Positions 30,190 through 63,216 of a DNA stretch of 64,000 nt are shown in pieces (position 1 is the stretch's first letter; every line of letters begins with the position of its first letter). The stretch spans positions 1,240,001-1,304,000 of the forward strand of contig JBNJNM010000021.1 in NCBI GenBank assembly GCA_052426225.1. Reading direction: 5' to 3'. This DNA comes from Zancudomyces culisetae HAW-14-8 (lineage: Eukaryota; Fungi; Kickxellomycota). A program made the translations under genes and the position numbers. The notes beneath the pieces were generated by a model. That model was not told where the DNA came from. It ran no database searches and was given only the letters and a program-made list of their open reading frames with translations.

Positions 30190-30263
30190 TGATTTCTGCC
30201 GGACTCGAACCGGCGACCGTCTGTGTGTTAGACAGACGTGATAACCATCTACACCAAGAAATC
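30190..30263 (-). tRNA. tRNA-Val (AAC)
   Basis: GATTTCTTGGTGTAGATGGTTATCACGTCTGTCT-AAC-ACACAGACGGTCGCCGGTTCGAGTCCGGCAGAAATCA folds to a full cloverleaf with A and B boxes; T-run terminator downstream (A-run 30181-30188 on +). Confidence 0.97.
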
Positions 30264-30271
30264 TGATGTTG

Positions 30272-35595: not shown

Positions 35596-35597
35596 GT

Positions 35598-41050: not shown

Positions 41051-41056
41051 ATGTTG

Positions 41057-44000
41057 TGTAATATTTTATTTATTATTTAAAATATTATATACCCGTTATG
41101 GGTAATAAGTGTCTAAACACCTTGCTATTTACTTTCAAGAGAGAGTTTAAACTATCTTGTTGCGTAACTAACAATTATGGAGGCGTAGACAGTCTTATTT
41201 TTTATTATACTATTTATTTATTTCTCTTATTAAATATATAAATATATAAAAATATTAACTTCTATCTAAAAATTATCTCAATAAAAAACTGATAACAAAA
41301 GAACCTATTATCAGAGAAGTCAGATAAAACCCTCTTCGGGAGAAAAGTCCAATCTTCTCACAAGTAAATAATAACTAATAAATAATAAACGAGAAACTGG
41401 TATTACCTTTATTGTAGTCCAGGGGTAATCACGCCAATTATATATGACAGATACCCCCCTACCAGATTGGACTTATCCCTGTTAGATTTTTAAACTGTCG
41501 TAACTTAGTTTTTAATGGATTAGTTACGTCAGGGATCATATTTCGACTGTACTGGAACCGTTTTAACATGTCTCCGTGAATTAACTCTCGATTTCCCTCA
41601 TCATCAGTGATGATGTATGTACCTTTGGATAAGACATTGTCGACTGTATATGGCCCTTCCCATATTTCCTCCAGCTTGCTTTGGAATTGTTCCGTTAGTT
41701 TCAGAACCAGGTCACCTTTTTGAAATGTCATTACTTTTACGTGACGGTTATATGTGGCCTTGTCCTTCGCTTTTGCAGCAGCATTATGTACTACACTCTC
41801 ATTCCGCATTTCCGGCAATTCAGATGTTATTGCTTTTATTCTTTCCCGTATGGCTAATTCCACATTATCTGCATCAGGCGGCGGTGTCCATACGCTGGGT
41901 GTAGTAATCTGTACTCCATAGAGCAACTCTGCTGGACTGTATTTTGTAGATTTGTTCCTAAGTGTGCGTACGGCTAACAGTGATTTCCATAAGAACTTGT
42001 CCCAGTTCTTCTTGTCTTCTCGGCACTGCCTAACTAGTACATTTTTTAACGTTTGGTTTAAACGTTCCACCTGCCCATTGCTTTGTGGGCGGTATGGGGT
42101 GGTTGGTGTGTGACGAATACCTAGGTGTTTGTAAAACTGTTCGGCGATGTCGCTGACGAATCCTGCTCCTCTATCCGTAATTATTTGACTTGGAACGCCA
42201 TAGCTCTGGACTATATGTGTTAAGATAAAACTGATTATTGTCTCTGTTTTAATGTTTCTTACCGCTGCGGCCACTGGCCACTTTGTGAAATAGTCTATTC
42301 CTGTGAGAATAAACCTATTTCCAGATTCGCTGATGGGGTTTATTGGACCGACGGCATCTAACCCAAATATGCTGAATGGTTTTGGGCTATAAATAGGATT
42401 CAGCAAGCTCTTTTTGGTCCTCCCTCCTTTGTATCGTTGACAAGTAAAGCACTCATTTACTACCTTCTTGACTACATCATAGAGTCCTTCGCCCGTATAC
42501 TTTTCCTTTACTTTGATCCACGTATTTTCTATCCCCAAGTGGCTCTCTTCGTGTACCAACTTGATTGTTTCTTCAATATTTTTTTCGTGTAAAACCTCTT
42601 TGACTTGTCCTTTTATAACTCGGCATAACTTATCCCCATGTAGAGTGTATTTCTTAGCTTTATTTCGTAATTTAGTTCGAAAACTCTCGTCTGCTCCTCT
42701 AGGATATTCGTAGGTCTGTAAATAATGAGTAATAGCGGTGAAATAGAGGAAGTCTAACGTAAAGATATCGAGGGTTTCTTTCACGGGTGTAGTCGATTCG
42801 TCTGTCAGCCTTGATAGGGCGTCCGCCGGATTCCTCGTTCCCATGCAATGCTCTATTGTATAATCATAGTTTCTTAGGATCATCGCCCATCGGGCAACTC
42901 TCCCAGTAATATCCTTACCATTGAATAACTGGATCAGTGACTTATGATCAGTCCTGATCGTGAAATGTTTGCCCCACAGATATTGCCTGAGTTTCTTCAC
43001 CGACCATACAACAGCTAGCCCCTCCATGTGTGCTACGGAGTAATTCCTTTCATGAGGGTTCAGTATACGGCTTAAGTAACAAATCGGCTTCTCGCCATCC
43101 GGAAATTCCTGCGAGAGTATGGCACCAATTCCTACAATAGACGCATCGGTGGTCACAATGAATTCCCTTGACCAATCCGGGTGAGTCAAAACTGGTGCCT
43201 CGCACAACTTCCGCTTCAGCTCATCGACCGCATTTTGATGTGTGGCGCCCCATTCCCACTTGGAGCTCTTCTTAAGTAGTTTAATCAGAGGTGATACAAT
43301 CCTTGCATAGTTTTCCACAAATTTCCTGTAGTATCCAGTAAGTCCCAGAAATGATTGGACCTCCTTGACACTACTTGGTGCAGTAGCCTGTTTGATAGCT
43401 AATATCTTGTCTCCACTAGTCTCAATGCCTTTTTCTGAAATTGTATGACCTAAGTATGTCAGTCGCTTCATGCCCAGACGACATTTACCCTTATGTAGCT
43501 GTATCTGGTGACGTCTGAGAAGATCCAGTACCTGACGTACATCCTCCACGTGCTGTTCCACGGTCTTGGAATATACCACAATATCATCGATGAACACGAC
43601 TGTTGTTTTCCACAGCACAGATGCTAGTGCGTTCTCCATCATCCGCTGGAAAGAAGCTGGACTGTTGGTGAGCCCGAATGGCATCACGTTGTAACAGTAC
43701 GTGCCACTTCCAGGGATGGCAAATGCAGTTTTGTCCCGATCATCTGACGCCATGGGTATCTGCCAATACCCGCTCAGTGCGTCAAATGAACTGAACACAG
43801 TAGCGCCAGCCAGCGCCATGAAAATGTCATCAATGGTTGGAAGGGGGTACGAATCCTTCCGAGTAATCTGGTTAAGTTTGCGATAGTCGGCACAAATTCG
43901 CAGCCGACCATCCTTCTTCCACACTGCCACTACTGGGGAACACCACTCTGATACACAAGGTGATATTACCCCATTTCTCTCCATTGTTTCCAACTCAGCT

Positions 44001-46413
44001 CTTACCTTTTCATACAGATGATATGGAATTCGATACGGCCGTTGCTTGATTGGCCGATCGCAGGTAAGATCAATTCGATGGCTGGTGGCGTCCGTTTGAG
44101 TGAGTTGCTCCACCCCTTCAATGAACAAATCTTTATTTTGTTCCACTAGCTCGGTTATTTCTGGTATTTCAATATGCTCGTTATCTGATAACCTTTCATT
44201 TGCATTATCGTCTTTTCCTAAGACTAGATATACTTCTGATTCATCTACATCAACCTCTTCCGTCATTAGCCTCGTATATAATGGGGTAATCAGTATTCTC
44301 TGGCCAATAGGTAGACTCAATTGTCCTTTCTGCAAGTCGATTCTTGCTCTATGATTGCATAACCAATCGGTACCCAGGATGAGAATGTCATCGCCTCTGT
44401 TCATTATAGTGACATCCACTGCAAAGATATAGTTCCCTACTTGTATCGGCACCTCTCTCATAGTACCTAGCGGCGCATGTCTCTTTCCGTCCGCTGTTAC
44501 AATTACTTGTCCAGCTGTATGTTCTGTGCGGAGTCCCCATTCATTTACTAATTTCGGTGTAGCCACGGAACAGGCAGCTCCCGTGTCTATTATTGCCCAC
44601 ATCTTTGTTTCGAATATCTGTACCTCCACTTTACAATTCGAGGTTTTTCCTGACTTTAGCTGTATCTCATTTATTTCTGTTTTTCTGACTTTTTTGGCCA
44701 ACTGGTTTATATCAACTGAGAGTTGAGGTGCAGCTTGAATTAGTTGCGGTAGACTGATGTGCGGGTAATATGACTTTAGGTCATCGGCCAGATTGAACGG
44801 TGTAACCCCTTCTGCTATTGCTGGTACTAATTTATTCCTCCGTGTAGCCACTTTTTCACTTCCCACTACCTCCTTGTTACTACTCTTAACCTTCTGATTA
44901 AGCGACGTAGTAAGTGGTACTTCCTGCATATCAGCGTGCTCGATGAGTTGTTCCATTGGCATAGCTTTCTCTCTTGGCTTTGGCGGCAGACGTCCAGTCC
45001 TAGTGTGTTCGTACGGCTTCTGTATCCCCTTTGGTCTAATTCCCCTTTGTACCGCAAATATTTCTGCATTTTCTTCTTCTTCAGGTGCCAACTCTATGTA
45101 ATTCACACTCTTATCCTTATCTGGTTGTATGCTCTCCCCCGGTTGTACTCTGACTCTTCTTGGACAATCTGGAGCCTTGTGCCCTACTTCTGAACAATGG
45201 TAACATTGAATTGGTCGCCTAGTAAATGTCGGTTGTCTTGACCTACGATCCTCCTTGAGCCGCTTCTCTATTACCTCGTCCACTTTAGTTAGGAGGTGTA
45301 CACTCCATTCCTCCATTTTCCTTACCATCTCATTATAGCCTAATCGCTCCTCAGCCATCTCACGTATAGGCTTTCCCATGTGTGGTAGCTGTAGCTTCTT
45401 CTCAACTGTTTTTACCAAGCCTTCTTTTGCCATACTTTCGGCTGCTCCTGGTTGTATCCCCTATTGTTCTGCGTTACTAACCGTTTCCATGGTACCTTTC
45501 CAGTCACTGCATCCTGCACTCCTGACCATTGCTCTGTAGTTTCCAGCTAACGTACTTTGTAGCCAATTCAGTTTCTGCTCATCATCTGTTATTTTGGCTT
45601 TAACTAGTATGTCCTCCAGCACATACTCCATTTCTTCAATACTCTCAAAGTCTTCCTGCTTTATAGTTTTAAGCTTCTCAAAATATACTATCCCTTGATC
45701 CTTAGGTCCAAACTTCTCGATAAACTTTGTCTTGAACGCATCCCACGTGGTGAATCCACTCTTGTTCCTTTTATACCATATCAATTCCCTTTTGCCCAAA
45801 TACAATTGAACAAAGTCAACCCAATCGTCGGTATCCCACTTGTTCAACTTTGCAATAATGCGGTACCTATCTACCCATTCCTTGGGATTTGTTTGGCTGG
45901 AACTCTCAAATACCTCTGGTTTGTTCATTTTCTTGTTATACTCGTTTGACCTAATTACTTCTTATTATTCTGCTAATCTTCCACTAAGCTGGCTTTATGG
46001 CCTAGCTGGGAGCGCCAATTGTAATATTTTATTTATTATTTAAAATATTTTATACCCGTTATGGGTAATAAGTGTCTAAACACCTTGCTATTTACTTTCA
46101 AGAGAGAGTTTAAACTATCTTGTTGCGTAACTAACAATTATGGAGGCGTAGACAGTCTTATTTTTTATTATACTATTTATTTATTTCTCTTATTAAATAT
46201 ATAAATATATAAAAATATTAACTTCTATCTAAAAATTATCTCAATAAAAAACTGATAACAAAAGAACCTATTATCAGAGAAGTCAGATAAAACCCTCTTC
46301 GGGAGAAAAGTCCAATCTTCTCACAAGTAAATAATAACTAATAAATAATAAACGAGAAACTGGTATTACCTAATATTGTAGTCCAGGGGTAATCACGCCA
46401 ATTTTATATGACA
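41057..46413 (-). mobile_element. Full-length Ty3/Gypsy LTR retrotransposon C
   Basis: LTRs at 41057-41449 and 46020-46413 (few differences); PBS TGGCGCTCCCAGCTAGG at 46017-46001; PPT 41450-41462; TSD GTTG (41053-56 / 46414-17). Confidence 0.97.
41459..45928 (-). CDS. Gag-Pol of element C, interrupted by one in-frame TAG at 45463-45461
   Basis: ORFs 45928-45461 (capsid N-part) and 45433-41459 are in the same frame, 27 nt apart; CYHCSEVGHKAPDC, IDTGA, FIDD, integrase core. Confidence 0.9.
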
Positions 46414-46417
46414 GTTG

Positions 46418-46640
46418 TGTTGTATAATTACATGTTTAACGTCCTACTGAGTAATATAATTACCCAGTATTATACAGGACGGGACTTTTATTATTATATA
46501 TTAGTACTATAATTATTGTGGGAGAAAAAGACAATTTATTAATTAATTCAAAACTAGACTATTTAATGGATAAAATAATACTATTTAAATTAACCAATAA
46601 AATACAAGGAAATACAGGTATATATTTCTACTATATAACA
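46418..46640. mobile_element. Solo LTR, family D copy 1
   Basis: TGTTGTATA...TATATAACA ends; GTTG on both sides; highly similar to 47336-47555. Confidence 0.85.
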
Positions 46641-47331
46641 GTTGTATGTAATTTTAGATTGTAGAAAATTTTTCAGGAAATTTCCGCAACTAAACCTACA
46701 AAAAGTTCTGCTAATAGAGGGGGATTGTTACTGGAATAAGTTTTACTTTATTTAACCAGTCAACCCTACTTTTTTAGCTTATATTTAATTTAGTTTTATG
46801 TATTTATTACTTCAATAAATGCGATAAAACTGAGTAAAATTACGCCCAACTCCTAAAATTTGGTGTGCAAAACAATTAATTTTGGTCCAAAAATTAGACT
46901 CTGATACCTTTCTGATACCCTTTGAAAATTGTGTTACGCTTCACTACCTATGTTTTTTTTTGGTTTTAGGTAGGTTTTTGCTCAAATCATAAATTTCAAT
47001 TTTGTAGAGTAAAATAAAGTATTTTAGAGCTAATTTGTATTTTATTTAATGAATAACTTTTAAAAATAAAAAGATATAATCACCAAACTTGTGGTGGGGT
47101 TACTAGTAATATACTAGTACCTGACTAGCTATTTTTTTAGAACTTTATATAATAGAAACTTAAAATAAAACAATTAAAACTGAATATTTCTCCAACATTT
47201 GGGTAATTTATTACCCAAGAAATCCCAGATTTCTTGCTCGAACACCTGAGATAACGGTGGTTATTCGGTGTTTGAGAAGCTGTATGCTGTTCATCCAATA
47301 GTTTAGCTTGGGTAGAACTAAGCATACAACA
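46641..47331. mobile_element. Probable solo LTR E (about 690 bp)
   Basis: (T)GTTGTATG...CATACAACA inverted termini followed by GTTG; left boundary uncertain by a few bp. Confidence 0.65.
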
Positions 47332-47335
47332 GTTG

Positions 47336-47555
47336 TGTAAAATTTCATGTTTAATCTCCTACTGAGTAATATAATAACCCAGTATTATACAGGACGGGAC
47401 TTTTATTATTATTTATTAGGACTATAATTAATTAAGTAGAAAAAGACAATTTATTAATTAATTCAAAACTAGACTATTTAATGCATAAATTAATACTATA
47501 TAAATTAACCAATAAAATACAAGGAAATACAGGTATATAATTCCACTATATAACA
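47336..47555. mobile_element. Solo LTR, family D copy 2
   Basis: Direct, diverged repeat of 46418-46640 ending TATATAACA. Confidence 0.85.
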
Positions 47556-47923
47556 TGTTATTGTTAACAAATTTGTATATTTATATAAAAAATTTGTTTA
47601 TTTAATAGTTATGTTGGTTTTTAGGGATATAAGTGGCGTAGAATCTACTTGTGGCTTCGATTAATGGGCTCACTTAATCCGTTATAATGATCTTAAAAAT
47701 ATCTACTAATGGCAAATATTGCAAACTCTTAATATATGTGTTTATTTACTAAAAAGATAAGATCTAAACCAAAACTTACTATCGAAATTTCTCACTAAAA
47801 AAACCTAACAAAAATTGCCAAGAACAAAGAGTCCAATTTCTAAAATAATTTTGATTACGTATTTCCATTGAATTTTTTCAATTTCCATACACTATTTTTA
47901 TAAAGTATAAAATATTTACGACA
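47556..47923. mobile_element. Probable solo LTR H
   Basis: TGTTA...TACGACA termini; fills the gap between two identified LTRs. Confidence 0.55.
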
Positions 47924-48377
47924 TTATGTTGTAGCAAAAGCATCAACTTAAATTTACCGCTTTCATTGCAGCAAAATAGCAGAGAAATCAATTTTGAAAA
48001 AATTGTTTCCTGCGCAATTCAATTTAGAGTACAAAAATTATGACCATGTGTTATGGTTTTAAATTATATGAAACCTTTGTCTCCACAGGACAATGTTTCA
48101 TATAATTTATCAATTATAACCATAACATTTACCGACCTCCACATTATTAATTTAAATGTTTTAGTTATGTTTTAGTTATGTTTTAAATTAGTATAATTTT
48201 AAAATTATCGTCCCATCATGAAAAGTATATAAGCTATACGATTATCATGATGGAACGATAAGTTTTACAACGAGTTTAGTTTCGTTTAGTTTATTCACTT
48301 ATAGTCTAGTTTACTAATAAATATATTTTATCCAAGTCCAGACCTTGACAGTTTGTAAAACTTCTCTTCAAGATACC

Positions 48378-49178
48378 ATGTCAAGTATATTCACCGAGTC
48401 AAGCATTAAACTTCCAGACGCTCCACGTTTTAGTGGGAAACCTTCAGAATTCCAAGCCTTCATGTCAAGCATTGAGCTTTATTTTTGGGCACGTGGAGAT
48501 CTATTCAAGACTGAAAAAAACAAAATAGTATTTATTGGCGCACACTTAACAGGACCCACAGCCATATGGTTTAACTCGCTCATCGAGGAAAAATCAACAG
48601 ACCTCGCAAACTATGCTCAGTTTTTGGAATTATTTAAGAAGAATTTTTCAGACCCCAGCCAAGAAATAAGAGCTAGAGGAGAATTACGTAGATGTAAACA
48701 AGGGCCAAGAAGCGTGGCTAACTATGCTGCCGAATTCAGGACTTCAGCCAGAATCAGCGGATTTGACCAAGCTGCACTAATTGACCAGTTCTTAAGAGGA
48801 CTAAATGACAATGTCATGAACTTTCTTATGATGAATGATATGCCTATAAAACTGGAGGACACTATAGCTCTAGCTGTAAAAGTTGATAACCGCCTTTCCA
48901 ATCGACGAATGTTAAGAAGCGCTCCGGGTTATTATAATTCATCATTTCAGAGACCAACAACTAAAGCAGAACCTGTTCAAAGTACTATGCATGATGACCT
49001 TCCACCTGGTGAACCTATGGAAATAGACGCACTAGTTACCAAACAGCGACCACATCTCTCTCAAGAAGAAAAGGACAGACGCAGAGCTCTTGGGTTATGC
49101 ATGTATTGTGGAAATCAAGGACATATAGCTATTCGCTGTCCAAACAAAACTCAGTCGGGAAAAGTCCACACTCAGTAA
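48378..49178 (+). CDS. Gag of chromovirus 1
   Basis: FSGKP, QGPRSVANYAAEF, PMEID, CMYCGNQGHIAIRC. Confidence 0.92.
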   Translation: MSSIFTESSIKLPDAPRFSGKPSEFQAFMSSIELYFWARGDLFKTEKNKIVFIGAHLTGPTAIWFNSLIEEKSTDLANYAQFLELFKKNFSDPSQEIRARGELRRCKQGPRSVANYAAEFRTSARISGFDQAALIDQFLRGLNDNVMNFLMMNDMPIKLEDTIALAVKVDNRLSNRRMLRSAPGYYNSSFQRPTTKAEPVQSTMHDDLPPGEPMEIDALVTKQRPHLSQEEKDRRRALGLCMYCGNQGHIAIRCPNKTQSGKVHTQ

Positions 49179-52100
49179 TACCTGGGAAGTTATTACTGGG
49201 TTCTCGTTACCTATTTAGCGTTAATAATCTTACAGACAGTTTAAGGAAATTCACTTTTCCAATAAAGTTATCTTATAACAACATTACGGTCCCAATAATG
49301 GCACTAATTGACTCCGGTGCCACAGGAAACTTTATTCAGGAGAAGTTAGCTAAAAGATTAAACCTTCCCAGAAAACCAATATCACAACACATCGAGTTAG
49401 AAACCATCGACGGTAATAAAATAACTGGATCACCCATAACTGAAACTTGTATTGGGTTTACACTAACATTATCTAATAACCACTGTGAAGAAATATCATT
49501 ACTACCTATAAACTCAATTGATATAGCCATAGTCTTGGGATTACCTTGGTTACGTAAACATAATCCACAAATACACTGGATTAATCATTCATTATCTTTC
49601 AACTCCAATTACTGTGTACACAACTGTATTAGCAATCCAAAGAGAATAGATGCTGTATTCAGAGCCCCAATTCATGAACATTCTGATATCGAGGCAGATA
49701 GACCTAGTAGCCCAGATATTTCTTCAGATGAAGAATTCTATGATGCCCCGTCTGAGCCCATAAATAAAACCCAAACCGAAAGCAATCACCCAGTACCATT
49801 TTCCATCAATACGGATAACGTCAACACATCCAACTCCGCAGATCCTATACATATTCCACCACAATATCATGATTTACAATCGGTATTTGATCCAGTCGAA
49901 GCAGACAGATTACCACCAAACAGAAGTTATGATTGCCCAATAGAATTAACGTCAAACATATTACCGAAAATGGGACCCATATACCCATTGTCGGTTGTCG
50001 AGTCACAAGCACTGTACGATTACATCCAAGAAAATTTAAAAAAGGGTTTTATAGTTAAATCAAAGTCACAAATAGGAGCACCAATAATGTTTGTAGATAA
50101 AAAGGACGGTGGCCTACGCCCTTGTGTTGATTATCGAAAGATAAACGAAATAACAGCAAAAAATATATACCCTTTACCGAGAATAGATGAATCGTTCGAT
50201 CATCTAAGTAAGGCAAAATACTTCACCAAATTAGACTTAAGAGGAGCATATAACCTAGTACGAATCAGACCTGGTGATGAATGGAAGACTGCTTTCAGAT
50301 GCAGATACGGTTTATATGAATACAGGGTGATGCCATTCGGGCTCACTAATGCCCCAGCCACATTCCAGACGTTTATGAATGATATACTCAGAGAAGCACT
50401 GGATATATATGCTATTGCATACCTTGACGACATACTTATATTTTCATCTAGTCTAGAGGAACACTACAGCCATGTAAGAACAATACTAAAAATACTCAAG
50501 GAAAACAAACTGTATGCAAAACTAGAAAAATGTAAATTCCACCAAACATCGATCGATTTCTTAGGCCACGTAATAAGCCAAAAAGGTATAACATCTGATC
50601 CCCAAAAAGTAGCCAAGTTGATCGACTGGGAAATACCAAAAACAATTAAAGATATACAAGTATTCTTAGGTTTTGTAAACTATTACAGAAAATTTATCCC
50701 AAATATGGCAAACATCGCGTTACCCTTAACAAATTTACTAAAAAAGGATATAGCATTTAAATGGAACAACGAAGAACAGAATTCGTTTACTACACTCATT
50801 AGACATCTAGCTGGATTACCTTTACTCTCTTATCCTAACCATGACAAACAATATATCGTGGAGACTGACGCTTCGGATTACGCTATGGGAGCAATATTAT
50901 CGCAGTATGATGAAGATAATGAATTAAGACCTGTTGCATACTACTCTAGAAAGTTCACCCCAGCGGAAATCAATTACGACATCTACGATAAGGAAATGCT
51001 TGCCATTGTTACAGCAATGAAAGAATGGAGACATTACCTCGAAGGTACACAGCAAACTACAATTGTATATACGGATCACAAAAATCTAGAACACTTTAAG
51101 AATGCTCAAACCTTAAACCGACGGCACGCAAGATGGTCACTTACGCTATCACGATATAACTTCCTTATTACATACAGACCGGGAACTGAGGGTGGCAAAC
51201 CTGACGCACTGTCTAGAAGATCTGAATACCAACAAGGTCCTCCACTACCTAAAAACATCTTTCGCAATACCAACTTCCTTTACGCAATTATCCAGCCACA
51301 TAACCCTATATTATCTAAAATCCTAAACGAGTCTAAGAAAGACAAATATGCAATTAAGTTACTGAAAAAAATAAATTTACCGACCAAATCAAATAATGAT
51401 AAACAACCGATATATCGAATTGACAATGGAATAATAAAGTACAAAGAAAGAATATATTTACCAGAAAGCACTAGGCTGGATGTTATCAAGATGCACCATG
51501 ATTCAACAACTGCTGGACACTATGGAATTAAGAAAACTTTAGACCTGTTACGTCGCACATTTTGGTTCCCTGATATGAATAACTATGTAAGGAAATATAT
51601 AGAAACATGCGATATCTGTAAAAGAACAAAAATACCTCGACACAGAAAGTTTGGATTACTAACACCTTTACCAGTTCCATCAGGTCCGTGGAAATCAGTT
51701 ACAATGGATTTTATTGTAGAGTTACCACCATCCAACGGGTATACAACTATACTAGTAATGGTAGACCGGTTTACAAAGATGGCTAAATTCGTGCCTATCA
51801 AGAAACTTCCCACTGCGCAACAAACTGCTGACATCTTCCTGAAACATATTTTCTCTAACTATGGATTACCAGAAGAAATAATCACTGACCGAGGTAGCCA
51901 ATTTACTTCAAAGTTTTGGCAAAGATTACTAAAACTACTGAAAATAAAATCTAAACTCTCTTCAGCATTCCATCCAGAAACTGACGGTCAGTCAGAAAGA
52001 ACAAACCAAACTCTCGAACAATACCTTAGAGCTTTTATCTCTTATCAACAAGATAATTGGGACACGCTATTACCTATGGCAGAGTTTTCGTATAATAATT

Positions 52101-52744
52101 CTAAACACTCATCTACAAAGTCATCGCCGTTTTACAGTCTCATGGGATATCACCCGAACTTCACTACAATCAAATTATCAACTACACAAGTACCCGAAGC
52201 AGATGAACACATAAATAACTTAAGAAAAATAAATACATTATTAAAAACTAATTTATATAATTCTAACAAAAAATCTAAGTTATACGCGGATAGGAAAAGA
52301 ACAAGTGGACCTGAAATCAAGCCAAACGATCTAGTGTGGTTAAATGCAAAGAATATAAAAACTGACAGACCATCAAAGAAGTTAGACCACCAATTTCTTG
52401 GACCATTCAAAGTATTAAAAAGGATAGGAAAAGTAGCTTATAAACTAGAATTACCAGAGTCGATGAAGATTCATCCTACATTTCATATTTCGCTATTGGA
52501 ACCATACAAACCTAATGAAATTCCAGGACGAGTCAAGGAACCACCTCCAGCAATCACAGTCGAAGGACAAAATGAATACGAAGTAGCAAAAATACTCGAT
52601 TCAAGAAAACGATACAACAAAATCGAGTACTTGGTTGATTGGAAAGGACATAGCGCAGCTGAACGATCTTGGGAACCTAGTGAGAATTTAAACTGTGACC
52701 GCCTACTTAATTTATACCACAAGAATCATCCTTACAAACCATAA
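49157..52744 (+). CDS. Pol of chromovirus 1 (PR-RT-RH-IN-chromodomain), reached by -1 frameshift
   Basis: IDSGA, YLDD, ETDAS, HHCC/DDE, GPF, chromodomain YEVAKIL...YLVDWKG...SWEP; slippery G GGA AAA at 49157-49163. Confidence 0.93.
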   Translation, partial: GKSPHSVIPGKLLLGSRYLFSVNNLTDSLRKFTFPIKLSYNNITVPIMALIDSGATGNFIQEKLAKRLNLPRKPISQHIELETIDGNKITGSPITETCIGFTLTLSNNHCEEISLLPINSIDIAIVLGLPWLRKHNPQIHWINHSLSFNSNYCVHNCISNPKRIDAVFRAPIHEHSDIEADRPSSPDISSDEEFYDAPSEPINKTQTESNHPVPFSINTDNVNTSNSADPIHIPPQYHDLQSVFDPVEADRLPPNRSYDCPIELTSNILPKMGPIYPLSVVESQALYDYIQENLKKGFIVKSKSQIGAPIMFVDKKDGGLRPCVDYRKINEITAKNIYPLPRIDESFDHLSKAKYFTKLDLRGAYNLVRIRPGDEWKTAFRCRYGLYEYRVMPFGLTNAPATFQTFMNDILREALDIYAIAYLDDILIFSSSLEEHYSHVRTILKILKENKLYAKLEKCKFHQTSIDFLGHVISQKGITSDPQKVAKLIDWEIPKTIKDIQVFLGFVNYYRKFIPNMANIALPLTNLLKKDIAFKWNNEEQNSFTTLIRHLAGLPLLSYPNHDKQYIVETDASDYAMGAILSQYDEDNELRPVAYYSRKFTPAEINYDIYDKEMLAIVTAMKEWRHYLEGTQQTTIVYTDHKNLEHFKNAQTLNRRHARWSLTLSRYNFLITYRPGTEGGKPDALSRRSEYQQGPPLPKNIFRNTNFLYAIIQPHNPILSKILNESKKDKYAIKLLKKINLPTKSNNDKQPIYRIDNGIIKYKERIYLPESTRLDVIKMHHDSTTAGHYGIKKTLDLLRRTFWFPDMNNYVRKYIETCDICKRTKIPRHRKFGLLTPLPVPSGPWKSVTMDFIVELPPSNGYTTILVMVDRFTKMAKFVPIKKLPTAQQTADIFLKHIFSNYGLPEEIITDRGSQFTSKFWQRLLKLLKIKSKLSSAFHPETDGQSERTNQTLEQYLRAFISYQQDNWDTLLPMAEFSYNNSKHSSTKSSPFYSLMGYHPNFTTIKLSTTQVPEADEHINNLRKINTLLKTNLYNSNKKSKLYADRKRTSGPEIKPNDLVWLNAKNIKTDRPSKKLDHQFLGPFKVLKRIGKVAYKLELPESMKIHPTFHISLLEPYKPNEIPGRVKEPPPAITVEGQNEYEVAKILDSRKRYNKIEYLVDWKGHSAAERSWEPSENLNCDRLLNLYHKNHPYKP

Positions 52745-52772
52745 AAAAAAAAAAAAAAAAAAAAAAATAAGA

Positions 52773-52926
52773 TGGACCCCCGAGGAATCGAACCTCGGCC
52801 ATCATTATGATTGGCAAAATTGAATCAATATCCTGCATCATTACCACCTAAAGGATTCAGCAATGACTCGAACTCGCATTCACCAGACCACAATCATGAG
52901 ACATACCGACTATGCCATTGAGGCCC
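52773..52926 (-). ncRNA. tRNA-like Pol III gene inside the chromovirus 1 3' UTR
   Basis: Acceptor stem GGGCCTC/GGGGTCC-A; A box TGGCATAGTCGG; T arm CGAGG-TTCGATT-CCTCG; second B box GTTCGAGTC; 25-nt T-run downstream (52743-52767). Confidence 0.75.
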
Positions 52927-53750
52927 GAGGCCTATACAGTTATAAATACTCAAGTCTAAAGGGGGGGGTAGTGTTATGGTTTTAAATTATATGAAACCTT
53001 TGTCTCCACAGGACAATGTTTCATATAATTTATCAATTATAACCATAACATTTACCGACCTCCACATTATTAATTTAAATGTTTTAGTTATGTTTTAGTT
53101 ATGTTTTAAATTAGTATAATTTTAAAATTATCGTCCCATCATGAAAAGTATATAAGCTATACGATTATCATGATGGAACGATAAGTTTTACAACGAGTTT
53201 AGTTTCGTTTAGTTTATTCACTTATAGTCTAGTTTACTAATAAATATATTTTATCCAAGTCCAGACCTTGACACCATGTCATAAATTTTTGTCAATTTTA
53301 CAGCCAATTTAATAGTTCAAATCGATTTATTTTTTAGTCGAATCGATTTTATACTTTAATAGTGGATTTATTTTTAATCAATTTTATTAGTAAATTATTA
53401 GTATAAATTGAAAAATTTGTAAACTCGACCAAAACCACACTAAAAGTAAAAATAAACATATATAGAGAAGCGTAATACTATTTTTTTAGTGTAAGGAAAG
53501 GGCCATTTTGGCTATATTTTCCAGGTTTTGGGAGGCATACTTTAAATAAAATTATTTTTAACAAAAATTGTGGAAATTGTCCAGTTGTGTTCTTTCCGAG
53601 GGGGTTTTATAGATAGTGGTTAACTGGCTAGAAATGGTAAATCCTGTGTCAGTAATAACCACCCTTCTAGGGAACCGTGATTGATATTAGTGGAAGTTTT
53701 TTGGGAAAATCCTATTGGACTAGTACTAAAAAATGAAAACGAATTCAACA

Positions 53751-54081
53751 GTTATAGAATTTCACAATTCTATCAAACTTTAATATTCTTATTGTATTAT
53801 ATGTTTATTACTAAGTATAATATTTTTGTATTATTGTTCTTTTTAATACTATATATGTTTAACTTAATATTTTGTTAAGATGTGTTTTTTATTTATTACC
53901 AAGTGGGCGGTTGCTTTAACCTCCAGATAATAATATAATTAACGAGTAAATAAAATGGAAAAAACTAACTAAACTATTGGACAAAAACCACAGGGGGAAA
54001 AAGGTCTAATCTCAAAACTATTAACTAAAAACCTAATAAATATATAAAGCTAATTATATAAAATCTTATCTTCATACGAAA
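53751..54081. mobile_element. Degenerate solo LTR, family G copy 1
   Basis: Ends CATACGA(A)A then TTTG; shares GTGGGCG and AAAACCAC.GGGGAAAA blocks with G copy 2. Confidence 0.65.
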
Positions 54082-54632
54082 TTTGTGATTTAGAACTTAC
54101 TAGTTCTAATATTATTTCTTAATATATTTCTCTATCCGTGTAGTATAATATTATGTATTATTTTTTATATGTTTATACTATATTTAACTAATTTTAAATG
54201 TGGTTAAGTGTCAAGATCTGGAGTCAGGAGAGTTATATTTATTATTATTAAAGTTTATTGTATGAATGTATACAAGATACTAGATACTGAATCCAAGACA
54301 GGAAAATTGTACCCTTTTTATACTTTTTTCCAGCCTTGGTTTTTGAACAAAATCACTATGAAAACTGCGGAATAGCTAAAAATGCAAGTTAAAGTAAAAC
54401 GTGTTTGATTACTAATCAAATTGGATTAGTAATCAAACAAAAATCAAACTCGAATGCTAATAAAATTAAACATGTGAAAATTATTACGTAAGAAAAATTA
54501 ATAAATAATGTGAATTTTCGGTAATGTTCTAGAATGTTCCCCAACATTCTAAACATTACTGCGGAATAAAATCAAATGATTCTAGAACGTTTTCGAACAT
54601 TCTAGAATCAGTTCATGACACGACCTCCCCTC

Positions 54633-57600
54633 TTAAGGCTGAGCTCCGTGAAGCATTTGTGGTGGCTTTGGTTTTTCAGGATGGTGACGATGGAATTCAG
54701 TGACAAGATATTTTGCATTTGATAAGTCAGAATATGTTTGCCAGGTACGTTCAGTGTCTGGGTATCCTTTCCAGTGTACCAGGTATTTGACAGTTCTACC
54801 AAATATTTTACTGTCTAGGATTTTCTCAACTTCATATTCTTCTTTACCGTCAATGATCACAGGTGGAAGCGGTTTTGATGGTCTGTCTGGGATCAGATCT
54901 GGTTTACAAGGTTCAAGGAGATTGACGTGGAATACTGGGTGAATCTTCATTGTGTGTGGTAGCTGAAGTTTGTATGATCTTTGTCCAATCTTTTCCAATA
55001 CTTTGAATGGACCAAGTTTCCGATAGTCAAGCTTCTTGCTTGGTCTTTGAGTCCTGATGTTTTTAGTTGAGAGATAGACAAGATCATCAATGTTGAAGTC
55101 AGGTTGTGATGATACTTTTCGGTTGTAGTATTTCTCATGGTCTTCAAGGGCAAGGGAGATGTTAAATTTCAGTTCTTGATGGATATCAGATAGTAGTTTG
55201 GATCTATCAGAGGAAGCAGGATTTAAAACTTGAGTACGAGGGATTATGACTGAGAAGCGTCGATGGAAGCCATAGTTTGCGTAGAAAGGTGTGGTCTTAG
55301 TAGAAGCATGGGATGTGTTGTTGTAGGCGAATTCGGCAATTGGTAACCACTTTGACCAATCAGTTTGTTGGTAATCAATGTAGCACCTGAGATACTGTTC
55401 CAATACTGAGTTTACGCGTTCAGTTTGTCCATCTGTCTGAGGATGGAATGCGGTGGACATTTTCTGTTCAATATTCAGTGATTTCATTAGAGTACGCATG
55501 AATGATGAATTGAAGGTCACACCTCTATCAGATACGATGTCTTTAGGGAGCCCATGTTTGCAGAAGACATGTTGGATAAACAGATCTGCAGTACCTTCAG
55601 CATCAATTTCATTGGTTGTGGGAACAAAATGCGCCATCTTGGTAAGGCGATCCACAAATACACAGATTGCAGTAAAGTTATTGGATGGAGGTAGCTGAGT
55701 GATGAAGTCGACAGAAACAGATGACCAAGGTGAATCAGGAACGGGAAGTGGAGCGAGGTAGCCATATGGTTTATGGCGAGAGGATTTGTTGCGTTGACAG
55801 GTATCGCAACCAGAGATGTAGTCTTTGATATATTTTCTCATGGTTGGCCAGTAAAAGTTGCGAGATACAAGTTCGTACGTCTTTGCATTTCCAAAGTGGC
55901 CGGCAGCAGGGGAATCATGGCATTCAATCAGAATTGTTCTTTTGATGTTGTCGTCTGAGGGGATACAGATTAGTCCATCATAGTGCAGAAGATTGTCAAC
56001 AAGAGCGAACTTTTCATTGGAATCAGGTTTCTTGGATAAGTCAGTGTAAATGGGTCCAAAGTACGTGTCTTTGGGTTGTAGTGACTTGATGTTGTTCATG
56101 AGCGTGGATGACAAAGGTTCAACAGGTGTACTAGTCATGGACTTCAAGAAGATTTCAGGAGGCAGCAAAGTTATTTTGTTTTGGTCAGTACGGGAGTCAC
56201 CCCCCTTCCAAGGTTGGTCTTTCAGAGAAAGAGCATCGGCGGCAGTGTTCTGTTTTCCAGGGCGGTACTTGATGACAAAGTTGAAGTTACTGAGGTATTC
56301 TGACCATCTGACTTGGCGGCGACTAAGATTTCTGGTAGTTGAGAAGTATTCCAAGTTTTTATGGTCGGTAATAACAACGGTTGGGTGTACAGAAAATTCA
56401 AGGTAGTGACGCCAGTGAGCAAAAGCGTCGATAATTGCTAACAGTTCCTTATCATAGATTTGATAATTCACTTCAGCAGGCAGGAGTTTCCGGGAGTAGT
56501 ATGCAACAGGGTGGAGTTGTCCCTCGTTGTCATACTGGCTGCAAATGGCACCTAATGCAAAATCTGATGCATCGGTTTCGATGATACAAGGCTGGTCAGG
56601 ATTGTAGTGAGCTAAGACTGGGTTACTGATCATGGTTTCTTTTAGCAAGGCGAAAGCTTCTTCAGCTTTGGGTGTCCACTGGAATTGGACACCTTTTTTC
56701 AACAAGGCGGTGAGCGGCAGAGATATCTTGGAGTAGTTCAGAATAAACGGCGGTAGAAGTTTGTAAGGCCAAGGAATACCTGAACGTCACGGACACAAGT
56801 TGGTGTCTTCCATTCGGTGACGCTGGATACTTTAGATGGATCCATAGAGATTCCGTTGGGGCCAATTACAAAACCGAGGAACTGTACTGATTGTACATCA
56901 AACTCACATTTCTCTAGCTTGAGGGTGAGATTGTGTTCCTGAAGCTTCTTCAAGACAAGGCAGACGTGGTCATAGTGCTTATCGATATCATCTGAGTAGA
57001 TTAACAGATCATCGATGTACACAACAAGGAATTGATCAATGTATTCACGGAAGAGATCGTTAACAAAGGACTGGAACGTGGCTGGAGCATTCATAAGGCC
57101 AAACGGCATGACCTTATACTCGAAGTGGCCGTAGCGTGTACGAAACGCGGTCTTCCATTCTTCACCAGGCGAGATCCTGATCATGTGGTATGCGGATTTC
57201 ATATCCAGCTTGGTGAATATCTTGGCTTTGCCAAGCCGATCCAAGGTTTCAGAGATGAGTGGCAAGGCTGCACGGTTGGGGACAGTGATCTTATTCAGGG
57301 CTCTATAGTCGACGCACAACCGGAGACTACCATCTTTCTTTTTTACAAATAGGACTGGAGCCCCAGCCGGGGATTCAGAGCGTTGGATAAAACCATTGGC
57401 TAGGTTTTCCTGAATGTAGTCGTACAGGGTCTTTAGTTCCAATTGGGAGAGGTTGTACAATGGGCCATATGGTATCTTTGAGTCAGGAAGCAAAGGAATG
57501 GTATGATCATATGGACGATGTTCAGGCAGTTTGGCAGATTGGGATTCAGAGAAGACAGATTCAAACATTTTATACTTTTCAGGGATTACAGGAGTAACAG

Positions 57601-58249
57601 GGGTTTTAGGATTAGATTCAGAGACAAGACAGAGATTTTCACAAGATTCAGGAGCTACAAGGGATTCAAGATTGTTCACGGTAATTGCACCAGCATAGAC
57701 AGTGTCTGGTGCCTTCAGATGTTCTTTAAACTGGTTTGAGCCCACAAGAGATATGTCTAGGTTGACATGGTTGGGCCCACAAGAAGTCAAGGTACAAGGC
57801 AGATGGACTATGTTCTCAGTCCAGTTGATGTCAGGATTGTGTTGTTGAAGCCAGGAAAGACCAAGGATGATTGGTGAAGATCCAAGGTCTATTTGTTGCA
57901 GATAGATACTTTCGAGATGGTTATCATTGATTTTTAGGGTTACTTGGGAGGCAGAGTTGGATCTAAGCTTTGATCCGTCAGCGAGAGTGATTGTCATTTT
58001 TCTAGATATAGATGGTAGATTGTTTTTTAGAGCAAAGGTGGCGTCAATGAACGAGGACGAAGCACCAGAATCAACCATAGCGTAGGTTTTGATGTGGAGG
58101 TGCTTGAACAAGATGGTTACAGGAATGGTCAAGGTGTTTGGTTTATCAGGAGATTGGGTGTCAGAAACAGGAGTGGTTACAGTGGCGTGGGGACTGGCTA
58201 AGTTGCCCAATAGGTGTCCCTTACTGTCTACTGGGCGGTGTCGTTTTCC
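54633..58249 (-). CDS. Pol of chromovirus 2 (PR-RT-RH-IN-chromodomain); -1 frameshift entry; broken by a 1-nt deletion near 56745
   Basis: VDSGA, YIDD, ETDAS, DDE, YEVEKIL...YLVHWKGY. One missing T turns the expected YRRFILNYS into YRRLF*. Slippery G GAA AAC at 58249-58243. Confidence 0.9.
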
Positions 58250-59448
58250 TGTGTTGGTGTAATGCTGGAGATGTTGTGGCGTTTCTTTGGACAGTTGATG
58301 TTGAAATGGTCATTACCGCCACAATAGAGACAGAGGTTGTTTTCGATACGGTATGCTCTTTGAGCAGGAGTAAGTGGTGGTCTTCTAGTCGATGAAGCGG
58401 TACTGAGATCCATTGGTTGAGGTCCATCACTATTAGCTGGTGGAGTGGTAGATGGTGCAGAAACAGGTGAAGCAAACGGGTTGTAAGCAGTGGGTTTGGG
58501 TGGCATAGTTGCAGTGGGGTTAACTGGAGGTTGACGACGTTGTGGATGGCTGAAGAGGCGGTTGTCGATCTGGATGGCTGTGGAGATCAGGGTATCGATG
58601 TCTTCTATTGGTTCTCTACGGTTGAGTTCTTGGGATACGTTGTACTTGAGACCGGATAGAAACTGTGAGATCAAAGGTGGTTGGTTCCAGTCAATTAACA
58701 TCTGTAGGCGTCTAAACTCGGTGGCATATGCGGCAACGGAAGTGGTTTGGCGGAGTTGGCGGATTGCCCTATCAGCATTCTCAATAGGGTTGGGATCACC
58801 AAAGGCACGAGTGATAGTTTCTTTAAACAGATTGTAGTTGGAGAGGATGGCAGGACGATCAGACTGTGGAAGGTTTGCTTTCATGAGGTAAGGTTCCATG
58901 TAACTGAATGGTGTGCCTGAGAGGTAGGAGATGGCATACAAGACTTTACTTGAGTCTGTGTTGAATTTATCGGGTGAAGCGGCAAAGACGAGAGCAAGCT
59001 GTGAAAAGAAGTTGGAACAGGCGGAGGGTTTTCCTGAAAATGTGTCTGGGTGTCTGACTTTGATACTAGGTTCAGAAGTACTAGCAACTTTGGTGGCACG
59101 GTTTTCAGTTATATAAAGTATGACTTCGTTCCTGAGGGTACTGAGCTGGTCCTGAAGGGATTGGATTTCCAACTGATTGGCCTGTATGGCGCTTTGGGTT
59201 AGCTGGTCTGAATTCTGGATATCGGACTGGAGGTTGTTCATGGAGTCAAGAATGGTCTGGATGGACTTGGTGGTGTCTGCTTTGACCTTGTCATAAATTT
59301 TCTTGGATACTGTGGCAGGGTGTTCCTTGATGGCAGACTCGGCTTTTTCTACTCTTATTAGTAGTTGCTGGAGGGCTTCTTCAACTGCTGGCAGGGTCAC
59401 GGCGGCTTTGTTGAGGAATTCAACTTGTTCTGGGCTAAACGGTTCCAT
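58228..59448 (-). CDS. Gag of chromovirus 2 (406 aa, N-terminal coiled coil)
   Basis: PDTFSGKP, QTTSVAAYATEF, PQPMDL, CLYCGGNDHFNINC. Confidence 0.92.
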   Translation of the reverse strand: MEPFSPEQVEFLNKAAVTLPAVEEALQQLLIRVEKAESAIKEHPATVSKKIYDKVKADTTKSIQTILDSMNNLQSDIQNSDQLTQSAIQANQLEIQSLQDQLSTLRNEVILYITENRATKVASTSEPSIKVRHPDTFSGKPSACSNFFSQLALVFAASPDKFNTDSSKVLYAISYLSGTPFSYMEPYLMKANLPQSDRPAILSNYNLFKETITRAFGDPNPIENADRAIRQLRQTTSVAAYATEFRRLQMLIDWNQPPLISQFLSGLKYNVSQELNRREPIEDIDTLISTAIQIDNRLFSHPQRRQPPVNPTATMPPKPTAYNPFASPVSAPSTTPPANSDGPQPMDLSTASSTRRPPLTPAQRAYRIENNLCLYCGGNDHFNINCPKKRHNISSITPTQENDTAQ

Positions 59449-60141
59449 GGTTAAAATACTTAGGCTGGTGTCAGAAAATAATAAATATAATATTTTGATC
59501 TAGTATAGTGTCAAGATCTGGAGTCAGGAGAGTTATATTTATTATTATTAAAGTTTATTGTATGAATGTATACAAGATACTAGATACTGAATCCAAGACA
59601 GGAAAATTGTACCCTTTTTATACTTTTTTCCAGCCTTGGTTTTTGAACAAAATCACTATGAAAACTGCGGAATAGCTAAAAATGCAAGTTAAAGTAAAAC
59701 GTGTTTGATTACTAATCAAATTGGATTAGTAATCAAACAAAAATCAAACTCGAATGCTAATAAAATTAAACATGTGAAAATTATTACGTAAGAAAAATTA
59801 ATAAATAATGTGAATTTTCGGTAATGTTCTAGAATGTTCCCCAACATTCTAAACATTACTGCGGAATAAAATCAAATGATTCTAGAACGTTTTCGAACAT
59901 TCTAGAATCAGTTCATGACATTAAGATTCATTTTATTCAATTAAGTTGTGGGCGATTGAATTAACCCCCAAATATGTCCTAAATTTTGTGATAACTATAA
60001 TCTAATTTTAAACTATCCTAATTATGAATGTTGAACAAAAACCACGAGGGGAAAAAAAGTCCAATCTAAAAATACTGCTAATTATATAAAATATAAAATT
60101 GGTAGATATATCGTTCCATCGTATTTCTCATACGACATTTG

Positions 60142-61744: not shown

Positions 61745-61747
61745 GTC

Positions 61748-62809
61748 TGTTGTATTTGTTTTCATTTTTTAGTACTAGTCCAATAGGATTTTCCCAAAAA
61801 ACTTCCACTAATATCAATCACGTTTCCCTAGAAGGGTGGTTATTACTGTCACAGGATTTACCATTTCTAGCCAGTTAACCACTATCTATAATACCCCCTC
61901 GGAAAGAACACAACTGGACAATTTCCACAATTTTTGTTAAAAATAATTTTATTTAAAGTATGCCTCCCAAAACCTGGAAAATATAGCCAAAATGGCCTTT
62001 TTCTTACACTAAGAAAATAGCATTACGCCACTCTATATATGTTTATTTTTACTTTTAGTGTGGTTTTGGTCGAGTTTACAAATTTTTCAATTTATACTAA
62101 TAATTTACTACTAAAATTGATTAATAATAAATCCCTATTAAATTATGAAATCGATTCGACTAAAAAATAAATCGATTTGAACTATTAAATTCGCTGTAAA
62201 ATTGACAAAAATTTATGATATGTGTTATAGCTTGATTTATTTTATTAATAATAACTTGATTTAAGAAAAATATTAACTTTATTAAACTAAAGAGAATATT
62301 TTTCACTGACGATTTCCACAACGAAATTCGTTGGGTTTATTACTTTTTCGTCAGCGAAAATTTCATGAATTAAAACCAAGGTCGCAAGACCTTGTTTATC
62401 GAAGAAAAAATATTTTCTTACTTCGATAAACATTCAAGGAGTTTGACACTTGATTAGTTTCATGATTTTCAATGTTGGGGTTTAGTTCAACATTGTGTTG
62501 TTTTGGTTTATGTAAAATATAAACAGTTACTAAAAATCGAATTGGTAATAAATTAATTTATTGATTACCTTATCAATTTATGTAACTTTACTAAAATGGA
62601 AATTCAACTTACTAATTTAATTAAACTAAAATATAAAAAAAAGTAACTAATGCAAAATTTATAGAACTACGTTCTATTCATAACAACATGGTCATAATTT
62701 TTGTACTCTAAATTGAATTGCGCAGGGAACAATTTTTTCAAAATTGATTTCTCTGCTATTTTGCTGCAATGAAAGCGGTAAATTTAAGTTGATGCTTTTG
62801 TATACAACA
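61748..62809. mobile_element. Solo LTR, family F copy 2 (inverted relative to copy 1), split by solo LTR K
   Basis: Reverse-complement match to 53279-53750 and 47927-48048. Confidence 0.88.
62223..62685. mobile_element. Solo LTR K (5-bp TSD class)
   Basis: TGTTAT...ATAACA termini; flanks ATATG / ACATG; interrupts F copy 2 exactly. Confidence 0.8.
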
Positions 62810-62813
62810 TTGT

Positions 62814-63216
62814 TGTCGTATTAGTTTTTATAGCTATGTATGGGCACTTTTTCATACTGGGTTTTTCCCCATACATTTGTTTAATTCTTAGTATTAATAT
62901 TGTTTAATTTTATTAACGCATTTATATGTTTCAAAATAAATCAGCGTATTTTATCATGCGGATAAATTACACAAAAACCACGTGTGTTTAACACGGGGTA
63001 ACGATACTGTTTTGAGTGAACTGTTAACTTGATAAAAAATGTAGGGGTAGAAAAGATAAACAACGCATGAATAAATAAAACATGTTTGAACAACAGAAGA
63101 ATATGTTAATGATTTCAAAACAATGTTAACATACACAAATATTATAGAAACCCCAACTTTATTTTACTTATAAAGAAAGAAGTACTAACTTTAAAAAATA
63201 TCTTATTACTAATATA
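62814..63216 (+). mobile_element. Diverged solo LTR of element B, interrupted by a Tc1 element
   Basis: Colinear with 35598-36000 with many substitutions; similarity stops at TA|CAGTG. Confidence 0.9.

Follow-up and report, generated by a model that had tools for sequence, protein, structure and literature searches.

An antisense tRNA-like unit, predicted to be a Pol III gene, in the 3' untranslated region of a chromovirus

In a 64,000-nt stretch of the genome of the fungus Zancudomyces culisetae HAW-14-8 (contig JBNJNM010000021.1, positions 1,240,001 to 1,304,000, referred to here as the window and numbered from its first letter), an intact chromovirus of the Ty3/gypsy group carries a 154-nt tRNA-like unit in antisense orientation between the stop codon of pol and the polypurine tract (PPT). 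An earlier note on this DNA had described such a unit, and it is indeed seen on the minus strand at 52926-52773. Judged by its sequence, the unit is probably a type-2 RNA polymerase III (Pol III) gene that is predicted to be still transcribable. The 227 nt from the pol stop to the 3' long terminal repeat (LTR) begin with a run of 25 A and 5 further nt, continue with the 154-nt unit and end with 45 nt in which the PPT lies (Table 1). Every outer feature that had been noticed is present: the acceptor stem, in which 52926-52920 pairs with 52780-52774 at all 7 positions (5 Watson-Crick and 2 G-U pairs), the A box with its D-like hairpin, a perfect T arm (5/5 Watson-Crick pairs), a discriminator A and a run of 25 T. 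The T run lies at the 3' end of the unit, after a trailer of 5 nt, and is the longest homopolymer of the window, the next longest being 13. The G+C content of the unit is 47%, compared with 37% in pol and 26% in the LTR. An unusual length of the 3' untranslated region (UTR) was considered and rejected, as the distance from chromodomain end to LTR in relatives spans 33-720 nt with a median of 125 (49 loci).

The unit contains what a type-2 Pol III gene has in sequence, namely an A box, a B box at workable spacing and a T-run terminator. The B-box pattern occurs at three sites in the 64 kb, two in the unit and one in the true tRNA-Val gene of the window, and both B boxes of the unit fit the consensus GTTCRAnYC (PMC3159450). 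The distance from T8 to T54 is 45 nt for the inner B box, versus 47 nt in the tRNA-Val and 125 nt for the outer B box. An A box and a B box at tRNA spacing are found together at 2 places in the window, the unit and the tRNA-Val. A canonical upstream TATA box was sought and rejected, the TATA-like sequence at 52948-52940 lying just 23-31 nt above the A box.

A descriptor combining A box, acceptor pairing, T arm and T run, composed after the feature was seen, matched twice in the window, again at the unit and the tRNA-Val. It had no match in 100 dinucleotide-shuffled windows, in 5000 shuffles of the 3' UTR or in 861,841 bases of related retroelement DNA (168 loci); a single B-box core alone arises in 85 of the 5000 UTR shuffles. 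This specificity, both against shuffles and against related retroelements, indicates that the tRNA-like unit is real.

Predicted fold of the unit

The favoured fold of the transcribed strand (-53.6 kcal/mol) keeps the acceptor stem, the D hairpin and the T arm, with an irregular rod of about 100 nt between them. The rod holds a GTG (52891-52889), which is paired inside it, the inner B box, an inner hairpin (52867-52837) and a TGC (52816-52814); it pairs across the two halves of the unit, with a 16-bp pairing. Acceptor pairs 1-5 have a probability P of 1.0, pair 6 of 0.86 and pair 7 of 0.28, the last being low because it competes with a sixth T-arm pair. The 6 bp of the D hairpin reach P ≥ 0.97 and the T arm P = 0.99, and most outer pairs of the fold exceed 0.95.

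The interior was less well anticipated. The earlier note had drawn a stem ATGATTG/CAATCAT enclosing GTG and an intron-like insert; these complementary segments exist, but their pair probabilities are 0.0002-0.0003 and forcing them together costs 5.1 kcal/mol (-48.5 versus -53.6 kcal/mol). As the GTG is buried in the longer rod, an anticodon followed by an intron is not the predicted geometry. The second B box that had been proposed is in place at 52875-52865, but the accompanying idea that one 5' half could pair with either of two 3' halves did not hold, since 4 of 7 pairs can form between the inner 3' half and the 5' strand, with P = 0.

Compared with shuffled sequences, the stability of the fold is less distinctive. 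With flanks included, the folding z-score is -1.26 (23/200 shuffles); on the exact 154 nt, with ends chosen after the fact, it is -2.1 to -2.5 (6/500 shuffles for the latter), and the rod arm alone is equalled by 17 of 500 shuffles. Of 168 folding segments taken over the chromovirus, the unit has the lowest raw energy, yet at least ten segments, with LTR hairpins at the top, have lower z-scores. Folding of the minus strand is favoured over that of the plus strand by 26.6 kcal/mol, a difference that 2 of 200 shuffles match and that exceeds the effect of composition. Enrichment of G-U pairs was tried as a sign of selection and rejected, 95 of 200 shuffles having as many. The folding models provide moderate RNA-structure evidence for the unit.

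Resemblance to tRNAs

The first 72 nt from 52924 match the tRNA frame position by position (T8, A14, GG, U33-GTG-G37, a 4-nt variable loop and G53-C61), with decayed inner stems. U33-GTG-G37 and the 4-nt variable loop are as in histidine tRNAs, and the G3-U70 pair with A73 represents alanine-type identity. An origin from two different tRNA pieces, a His-like 5' part and an Ala-like 3' end, is plausible from these positions. Internal tandem duplication of one tRNA was rejected, as the two halves are no more alike than shuffles (945/2000 shuffles equally alike).

The suggestion that the unit is not a decoding tRNA, made because of its non-canonical linkers, agrees with the gene finders. ARAGORN leaves the unit uncalled at its default threshold; when relaxed (90% threshold, introns allowed) it reports an 80-nt tRNA-Ala(UGC) there, one of 14 calls that this run makes across the window, of which 13 would fail at the default. 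Rfam, run on 7.5 kb and on 216 nt, lists no tRNA match at E ≤ 10, so that the gathering score of tRNA RF00005 is not reached; two overlapping matches of the same clan were excluded from the listing of the 216-nt scan. The best Rfam match is mascRNA at 15.8 of 42.5 bits, covering the T arm only, and a tmRNA-like mimic scores 8.3 of 47 bits, both below gathering. The unit lacks the linkers of canonical length and the open 7-nt anticodon loop of a decoding tRNA, whether or not an intron at 37/38 is allowed for.

Transmission with the chromovirus and occurrence in relatives

No direct repeat of at least 6 nt flanks the unit, as would mark a secondary insertion of a short interspersed element (SINE), although an old target-site duplication (TSD) could have decayed, and no other copy of the unit is present in the 64-kb window. 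The tail on the transcribed strand is T, not A. Since the LTRs are still identical and no insertion scar is seen, the simplest reading is that the unit passed through the last reverse transcription together with the chromovirus.

Related elements were collected at 168 loci (10 viral, 79 from metagenomes and 79 from a genome collection) with integrase identity of at most 52%; of the metagenomes 3 of 64 parts were scanned and the best 80 of 139 matches retained, and from the genome collection the best 80 of 147. At least 250 nt beyond the chromodomain were available in 60/89 and 46/79 loci, giving 106 usable 3' ends. The unit pattern was found in none of the 168 loci (106 with usable 3' ends), and ARAGORN reported no tRNA in any of them. 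Rfam gave no tRNA match on 10 related loci (E ≤ 1) or on the LTR of locus L011 (E ≤ 10), and neither a single-protein viral scan nor a scan for the exact T-arm/acceptor pattern found anything. The closest protein relative, P0002, is 59% identical over the last 400 aa. The neighbouring chromovirus in the window is also without the unit, having 12 nt between stop and LTR. The unit is therefore not clade-wide but lineage-restricted, which goes against a widely conserved role; its absence from distant relatives is silent on close ones. Contigs from small shares of two sequencing runs bear on the chromovirus itself: one (X1) has 137 nt identical to the LTR start, and another (X2) has 225 nt identical to the reverse transcriptase (RT) region and 196 nt of LTR sequence differing at 5 positions and by 1 gap, preceded by a different flank that is not a PPT. 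None of these contigs spans the unit, so they are uninformative either way on its presence.

Two loci contain tRNA-like sequence of another kind. In L011, a 50%-identical chromovirus, the U3 region of the LTR carries an antisense decayed tRNA 3' half including the T arm (4200-4300), and in L123, a 38%-identical chromovirus, the LTR carries a sense perfect T arm with B box (3960-4010) at a position like that in Helenus, an element found in fungi and discussed below. At the threshold used for relatives, T-arm-like chance matches number 5 in 70,757 coding bases. Unrelated tRNA-like scraps in the LTRs of 2 of 106 loci suggest that such captures recur. The 79 eukaryote-type retrotransposon contigs L090-L168 lie inside bacterial or archaeal genome records, most likely through contamination.

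A proposed capture as an antisense passenger

The account that we prefer, and to which we give an even chance of being right, is that a host tRNA-derived Pol III gene was captured once and is carried as an antisense passenger of the chromovirus; its main effect would be a mild head-on brake on chromovirus transcription. The anatomy is in place, with promoter boxes, terminator and acceptor/T-arm pairing intact. TFIIIC would use the A box and the inner B box, between which normal spacing is kept although the rod shifts the T arm 125 nt away; the product of Pol III would be a U-ended RNA of about 170 nt. The acceptor/T stack of tRNA precursors is recognised by RNase P and RNase Z, and the 12-pair stack of the unit could be trimmed by both. 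In the sense direction, the same enzymes would cut the genomic RNA at the tRNA-like fold, so that only the antisense direction would be tolerated; this would explain the orientation without any function.

As for the route of capture, the oligo(U) end of the Pol III RNA may have primed on an A tract or on poly(A) at the pol stop and been copied by RT, with subsequent recombination onto the PPT and LTR. Such priming would account in one step for the antisense direction, the A25 left junction and the missing TSD. Alternatively, the gene may have been captured at the DNA level, with a short terminator growing later by slippage. The undiverged LTRs and the lack of a flanking insertion scar suggest that the unit rode through at least the last transposition. 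If occupied, it would meet the Pol II transcribing the chromovirus head on. An antisense Pol III unit in mouse Polr3e lowers Pol II output about 1.5-fold by interference (PMC5358760).

Several points weigh against a captured passenger. There is no TATA box at the usual distance from the A box, and neither a host source gene nor a second copy of the unit is seen. A head-on Pol III unit should cost the chromovirus, which argues for a benefit or for low occupancy. The outer pairing (7/7 in the acceptor, 5/5 in the T arm, the 6-bp D hairpin and the 16-bp pairing across the halves) is too well kept for a drifting passenger, unless the capture was recent, and the strand difference in folding, rarely equalled by shuffles, points in the same direction.

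Alternative explanations

The well-kept outer pairing would fit a selected RNA cargo, in which a tRNA-scaffolded hairpin RNA acts in trans as a Dicer/Argonaute decoy or as a source of small RNAs. We regard this as unlikely. The well-defined fold and its strand asymmetry are in its favour, together with the rod pairing across both halves and the alanine-type G3-U70 with A73, which goes with the relaxed ARAGORN call. Retroviral Pol III RNAs provide a precedent (PMC4378190). On the other hand, the folding z-score of only -1.3 to -2.5 is weaker than that of the LTR hairpins, G-U pairs are not enriched, the pattern is missing from the distant relatives, and no match of at least 10 nt to other parts of the chromovirus suggests a target. 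In its boldest form this reading would have an autonomous fungal retrotransposon evolve its own Pol III gene, with alanine-type acceptor, D and T arms shielding a 100-nt hairpin and a spare B box keeping the spacing, as a silencing decoy or for copy-number control like adenovirus virus-associated (VA) RNA; we find that proposal rather unlikely.

Selection could instead have acted on DNA, with TFIIIC and TFIIIB on the two B boxes acting as a barrier against heterochromatin, stopping antisense read-in that comes from the 3' LTR, or offering the tRNA-targeting elements of the genome a landing pad. Fission yeast tRNA genes are Pol III-dependent barriers (PMC2040200), TRE5-A is drawn to isolated B boxes (PMC3159450), both boxes of the unit fit the B-box consensus, and in the window itself Ty3-like elements are stacked 8 nt upstream of the tRNA-Val. 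Nevertheless, the unit lies 4.4 kb from the 5' LTR promoter that would need protection, a barrier has no need of a long paired rod, and barrier activity is orientation-independent (PMC2040200), leaving the orientation unexplained. This copy has no insertion upstream of the unit, and heterochromatin targeting by the chromodomain is itself uncertain because it has His at the third aromatic-cage position, as in 4 of 102 relatives. This role, too, we hold to be unlikely.

A tRNA-derived SINE, possibly dimeric like Twin, might have jumped into this copy after integration. The 80 nt between the two B boxes, the length close to that of two tRNAs, the tail of simple repeat and the fact that no second carrier is seen would suit such an event. 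Against it stand the absence of a flanking repeat, the T rather than A tail and the lack of another copy in 64 kb rich in mobile DNA. The identical LTRs also leave little time, and the insertion would have had to land exactly at the stop codon, leaving pol and PPT undamaged. The dissimilarity of the two halves is a further objection, one with which two different tRNAs remain compatible. On balance a SINE seems rather improbable.

Very unlikely is a real intron-containing tRNA gene, either Ala-UGC once 74 nt are spliced out at an unusual place or His-GUG interrupted by an intron at 37/38, carried by the chromovirus. The relaxed ARAGORN call supports the former, the acceptor identity agreeing with that anticodon, but the unit goes without a default ARAGORN or Rfam tRNA call and the relaxed run is dominated by sub-default calls. 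Moreover, all linkers are too long, position 37 is C, the spliced form folds into no cloverleaf, and a His anticodon is at odds with the acceptor. Chance resemblance in an ordinary 3' UTR is scarcely credible: Rfam scores under all gathering thresholds and a descriptor composed after the fact would allow it, but shuffled windows, shuffled UTRs and 862 kb of related retroelement DNA gave no match to the descriptor, as against the 85 occurrences of a lone B-box core.

Relation to known systems

Sequences derived from tRNAs and used by Pol III are already known in the LTRs of small non-autonomous elements, as are Pol III RNAs in some retroviruses. Not a few LTRs in Repbase contain tRNA-like pieces (Kojima 2024, PMC10886601). 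In the Helenus/TRIMp3 elements, which are found in fungi, a tRNA-derived sequence, mostly a non-working tRNA, keeps its A and B boxes within an LTR retrotransposon; Helenus is short and non-coding, with the tRNA part in both LTRs, where it is thought to be the element's own promoter (PMC10886601). Such elements are non-autonomous and under about 1.3 kb, whereas the host here is autonomous, with 5.2 kb and open gag and pol. Its unit is single, internal, outside the LTRs and antisense, with its own terminator, and cannot drive the chromovirus.

Among coding gypsy elements, the closest case in print is cqgypsy_1 of Culex, with a tRNA dimer-like insert in a Ty3/gypsy element (PMC3286476). That insert comprises two well-folded, CCA-ended tRNAs at the primer-binding site (PBS) with a 26-nt flanking duplication (PMC3286476); the present unit lies in the 3' UTR, has no CCA and no duplication, and forms one composite fold ending in a T-run terminator. 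Twin and other dimeric tRNA SINEs likewise have two tRNA-related regions, two B boxes and Pol III type (PMC3286476, PMC3531059), but Twin is dispersed in many copies that have TSDs and a poly(A) tail, features not seen for the unit. SINEBase asks for at least 100 interspersed copies in most genomes.

Pol III units giving structured RNAs of about 160 nt within retroelement or virus genomes include the pre-miRNAs of bovine leukemia virus and foamy viruses, the tRNA-miRNA chimeras of murine gammaherpesvirus 68 and adenovirus VA RNA (PMC4378190). Expression of these viral RNAs has been shown (PMC4378190), whereas that of the present unit is a prediction; in the herpesvirus chimeras the hairpins follow the tRNA, whereas here the rod replaces the anticodon arm. 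The antisense mammalian-wide interspersed repeat in intron 1 of Polr3e is likewise derived from a tRNA and places a Pol III unit inside a Pol II unit, but it lies in a host gene, is conserved across mammals and has had its interference measured (PMC5358760). The host element itself resembles the self-priming Tf1/sushi-type chromoviruses (Tj1, PMC4600332; Tcn1 clade, PMC2864245) in gag, pol with chromodomain, a PBS matching its own LTR, PPT and 5-bp TSD, a likeness of layout. The available portions of these two descriptions mention no tRNA-like cargo. A literature search outside subscription journals and Repbase Reports returned no description of an LTR element of this kind, autonomous, fungal and carrying an intact antisense Pol III unit within the 3' UTR.

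Should it prove expressed and conserved, the unit would amount to a regulatory RNA encoded by a transposon, or else to a portable TFIIIC site by which Pol III machinery and targets for tRNA-seeking elements are spread through the genome. If a passenger, it shows how captures look before they decay and why they survive only in the backward orientation.

The host chromovirus and its surroundings

The window encodes a fatty acid synthase of the fused type; in the region searched it shares 65-66% identity with proteins of Dimargaris, Coemansia and Kickxella and has no close match, which fits an early-diverging fungus, tentatively of the Zoopagomycota. The right half of the window is a cluster of five full-length Ty3/gypsy elements, of which the fourth (48049-53273, 5.2 kb) contains the unit. 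As had been noted, it appears autonomous and its LTRs are identical; gag and pol are open, each LTR measures 302 bp, and the TSD is CCATG. Its pol has the order protease, RT, RNase H, integrase with a C-terminal chromodomain (Chromo E 1.6e-11), as in chromoviruses of the Ty3/gypsy group, and the TG...CA termini of the LTRs, the PPT and the 5-bp TSD agree with this assignment.

Table 1. Positions of the tRNA-like unit and of its host chromovirus in the window
Feature	Position	Strand	Remarks
tRNA-like unit, 154 nt	52773..52926	-	acceptor, D hairpin, long rod, T arm, discriminator A; no encoded CCA
T25 run, predicted Pol III terminator	52743..52767	-	A25 on the sense strand; overlaps pol stop
3' acceptor strand (52780-52774) and discriminator A (52773)	52773..52780	-	G1-C72, G2-C71, G3-U70
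T arm, perfect	52781..52797	-	contains outer B box 52794-52784; T8 to T54 125 nt
Irregular rod, ~100 nt, predicted	52799..52899	-	replaces anticodon arm
Inner B box	52865..52875	-	T8 to T54 45 nt
A box (52917-52906) in 6-bp D-like hairpin (52916-52900)	52900..52917	-	
5' acceptor strand	52920..52926	-	
5' LTR	48049..48350	+	302 bp, TG...CA, identical to 3' LTR
3' LTR	52972..53273	+	302 bp
TSD CCATG, 5 bp	48044-48048 and 53274-53278		flanks of chromovirus
LTR segment complementary to PBS, predicted self-primer	48260..48270	+	11 nt; 34 nt after TATATA at 48226
PBS without TGG	48353..48363	+	complementary to 48260-48270
gag open reading frame	48378..49178	+	Retrotrans_gag, Ty3_capsid
pol frame, uninterrupted	49013..52744	+	protease, RT, RNase H, integrase, SH3, chromodomain; stop TAA 52742-52744
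PPT and 3-nt spacer	52958..52971	+	

The PBS has no TGG and is complementary over 11 nt to the LTR downstream of a TATA box, as in the Tf1/sushi type. By likeness to Tf1 and Tj1 (PMC4600332), reverse transcription of the chromovirus is predicted to be self-primed, as the earlier note had supposed from its appearance, and because the arrangement is the same as in those elements a tRNA primer is probably not needed. A primer role for the tRNA-like unit was considered and rejected, the chromovirus having its own self-priming match. The PBS of two related loci (L011 and L013), judged by eye, is also complementary to 11-12 nt of the respective LTR, and self-priming seems common to this chromovirus group. 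In the chromodomain (52570-52660), the third aromatic-cage position, where the element has His, is Tyr, Trp or Phe in 98 of 102 relatives.

The chromovirus lies in one arm of an inverted repeat of about 600 bp whose arms are 96% alike (47935-53751 and 61747-62820). In the other arm an unrelated solo-LTR-like piece of about 463 bp (62223-62685) occupies the same spot within a few bases, which suggests an insertion hot spot shared by both arms. The second chromovirus, at 54193-59792 on the minus strand, has pol in two frames near 56740-56790 and LTRs about 98% alike. Further upstream, at 30190-47560, a row of three full Ty3-like elements plus another LTR pair begins 8 nt upstream of tRNA-Val(AAC), with GTTG or ATGTTG between neighbours, a case of repeated insertion at one Pol III start site. 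A 1218-aa open reading frame at 23557-27213 is made of several tandem repeat arrays (60, 15, 12 and 27 nt); it has no Pfam match, and its product looks like a Thr/Pro-rich surface protein.

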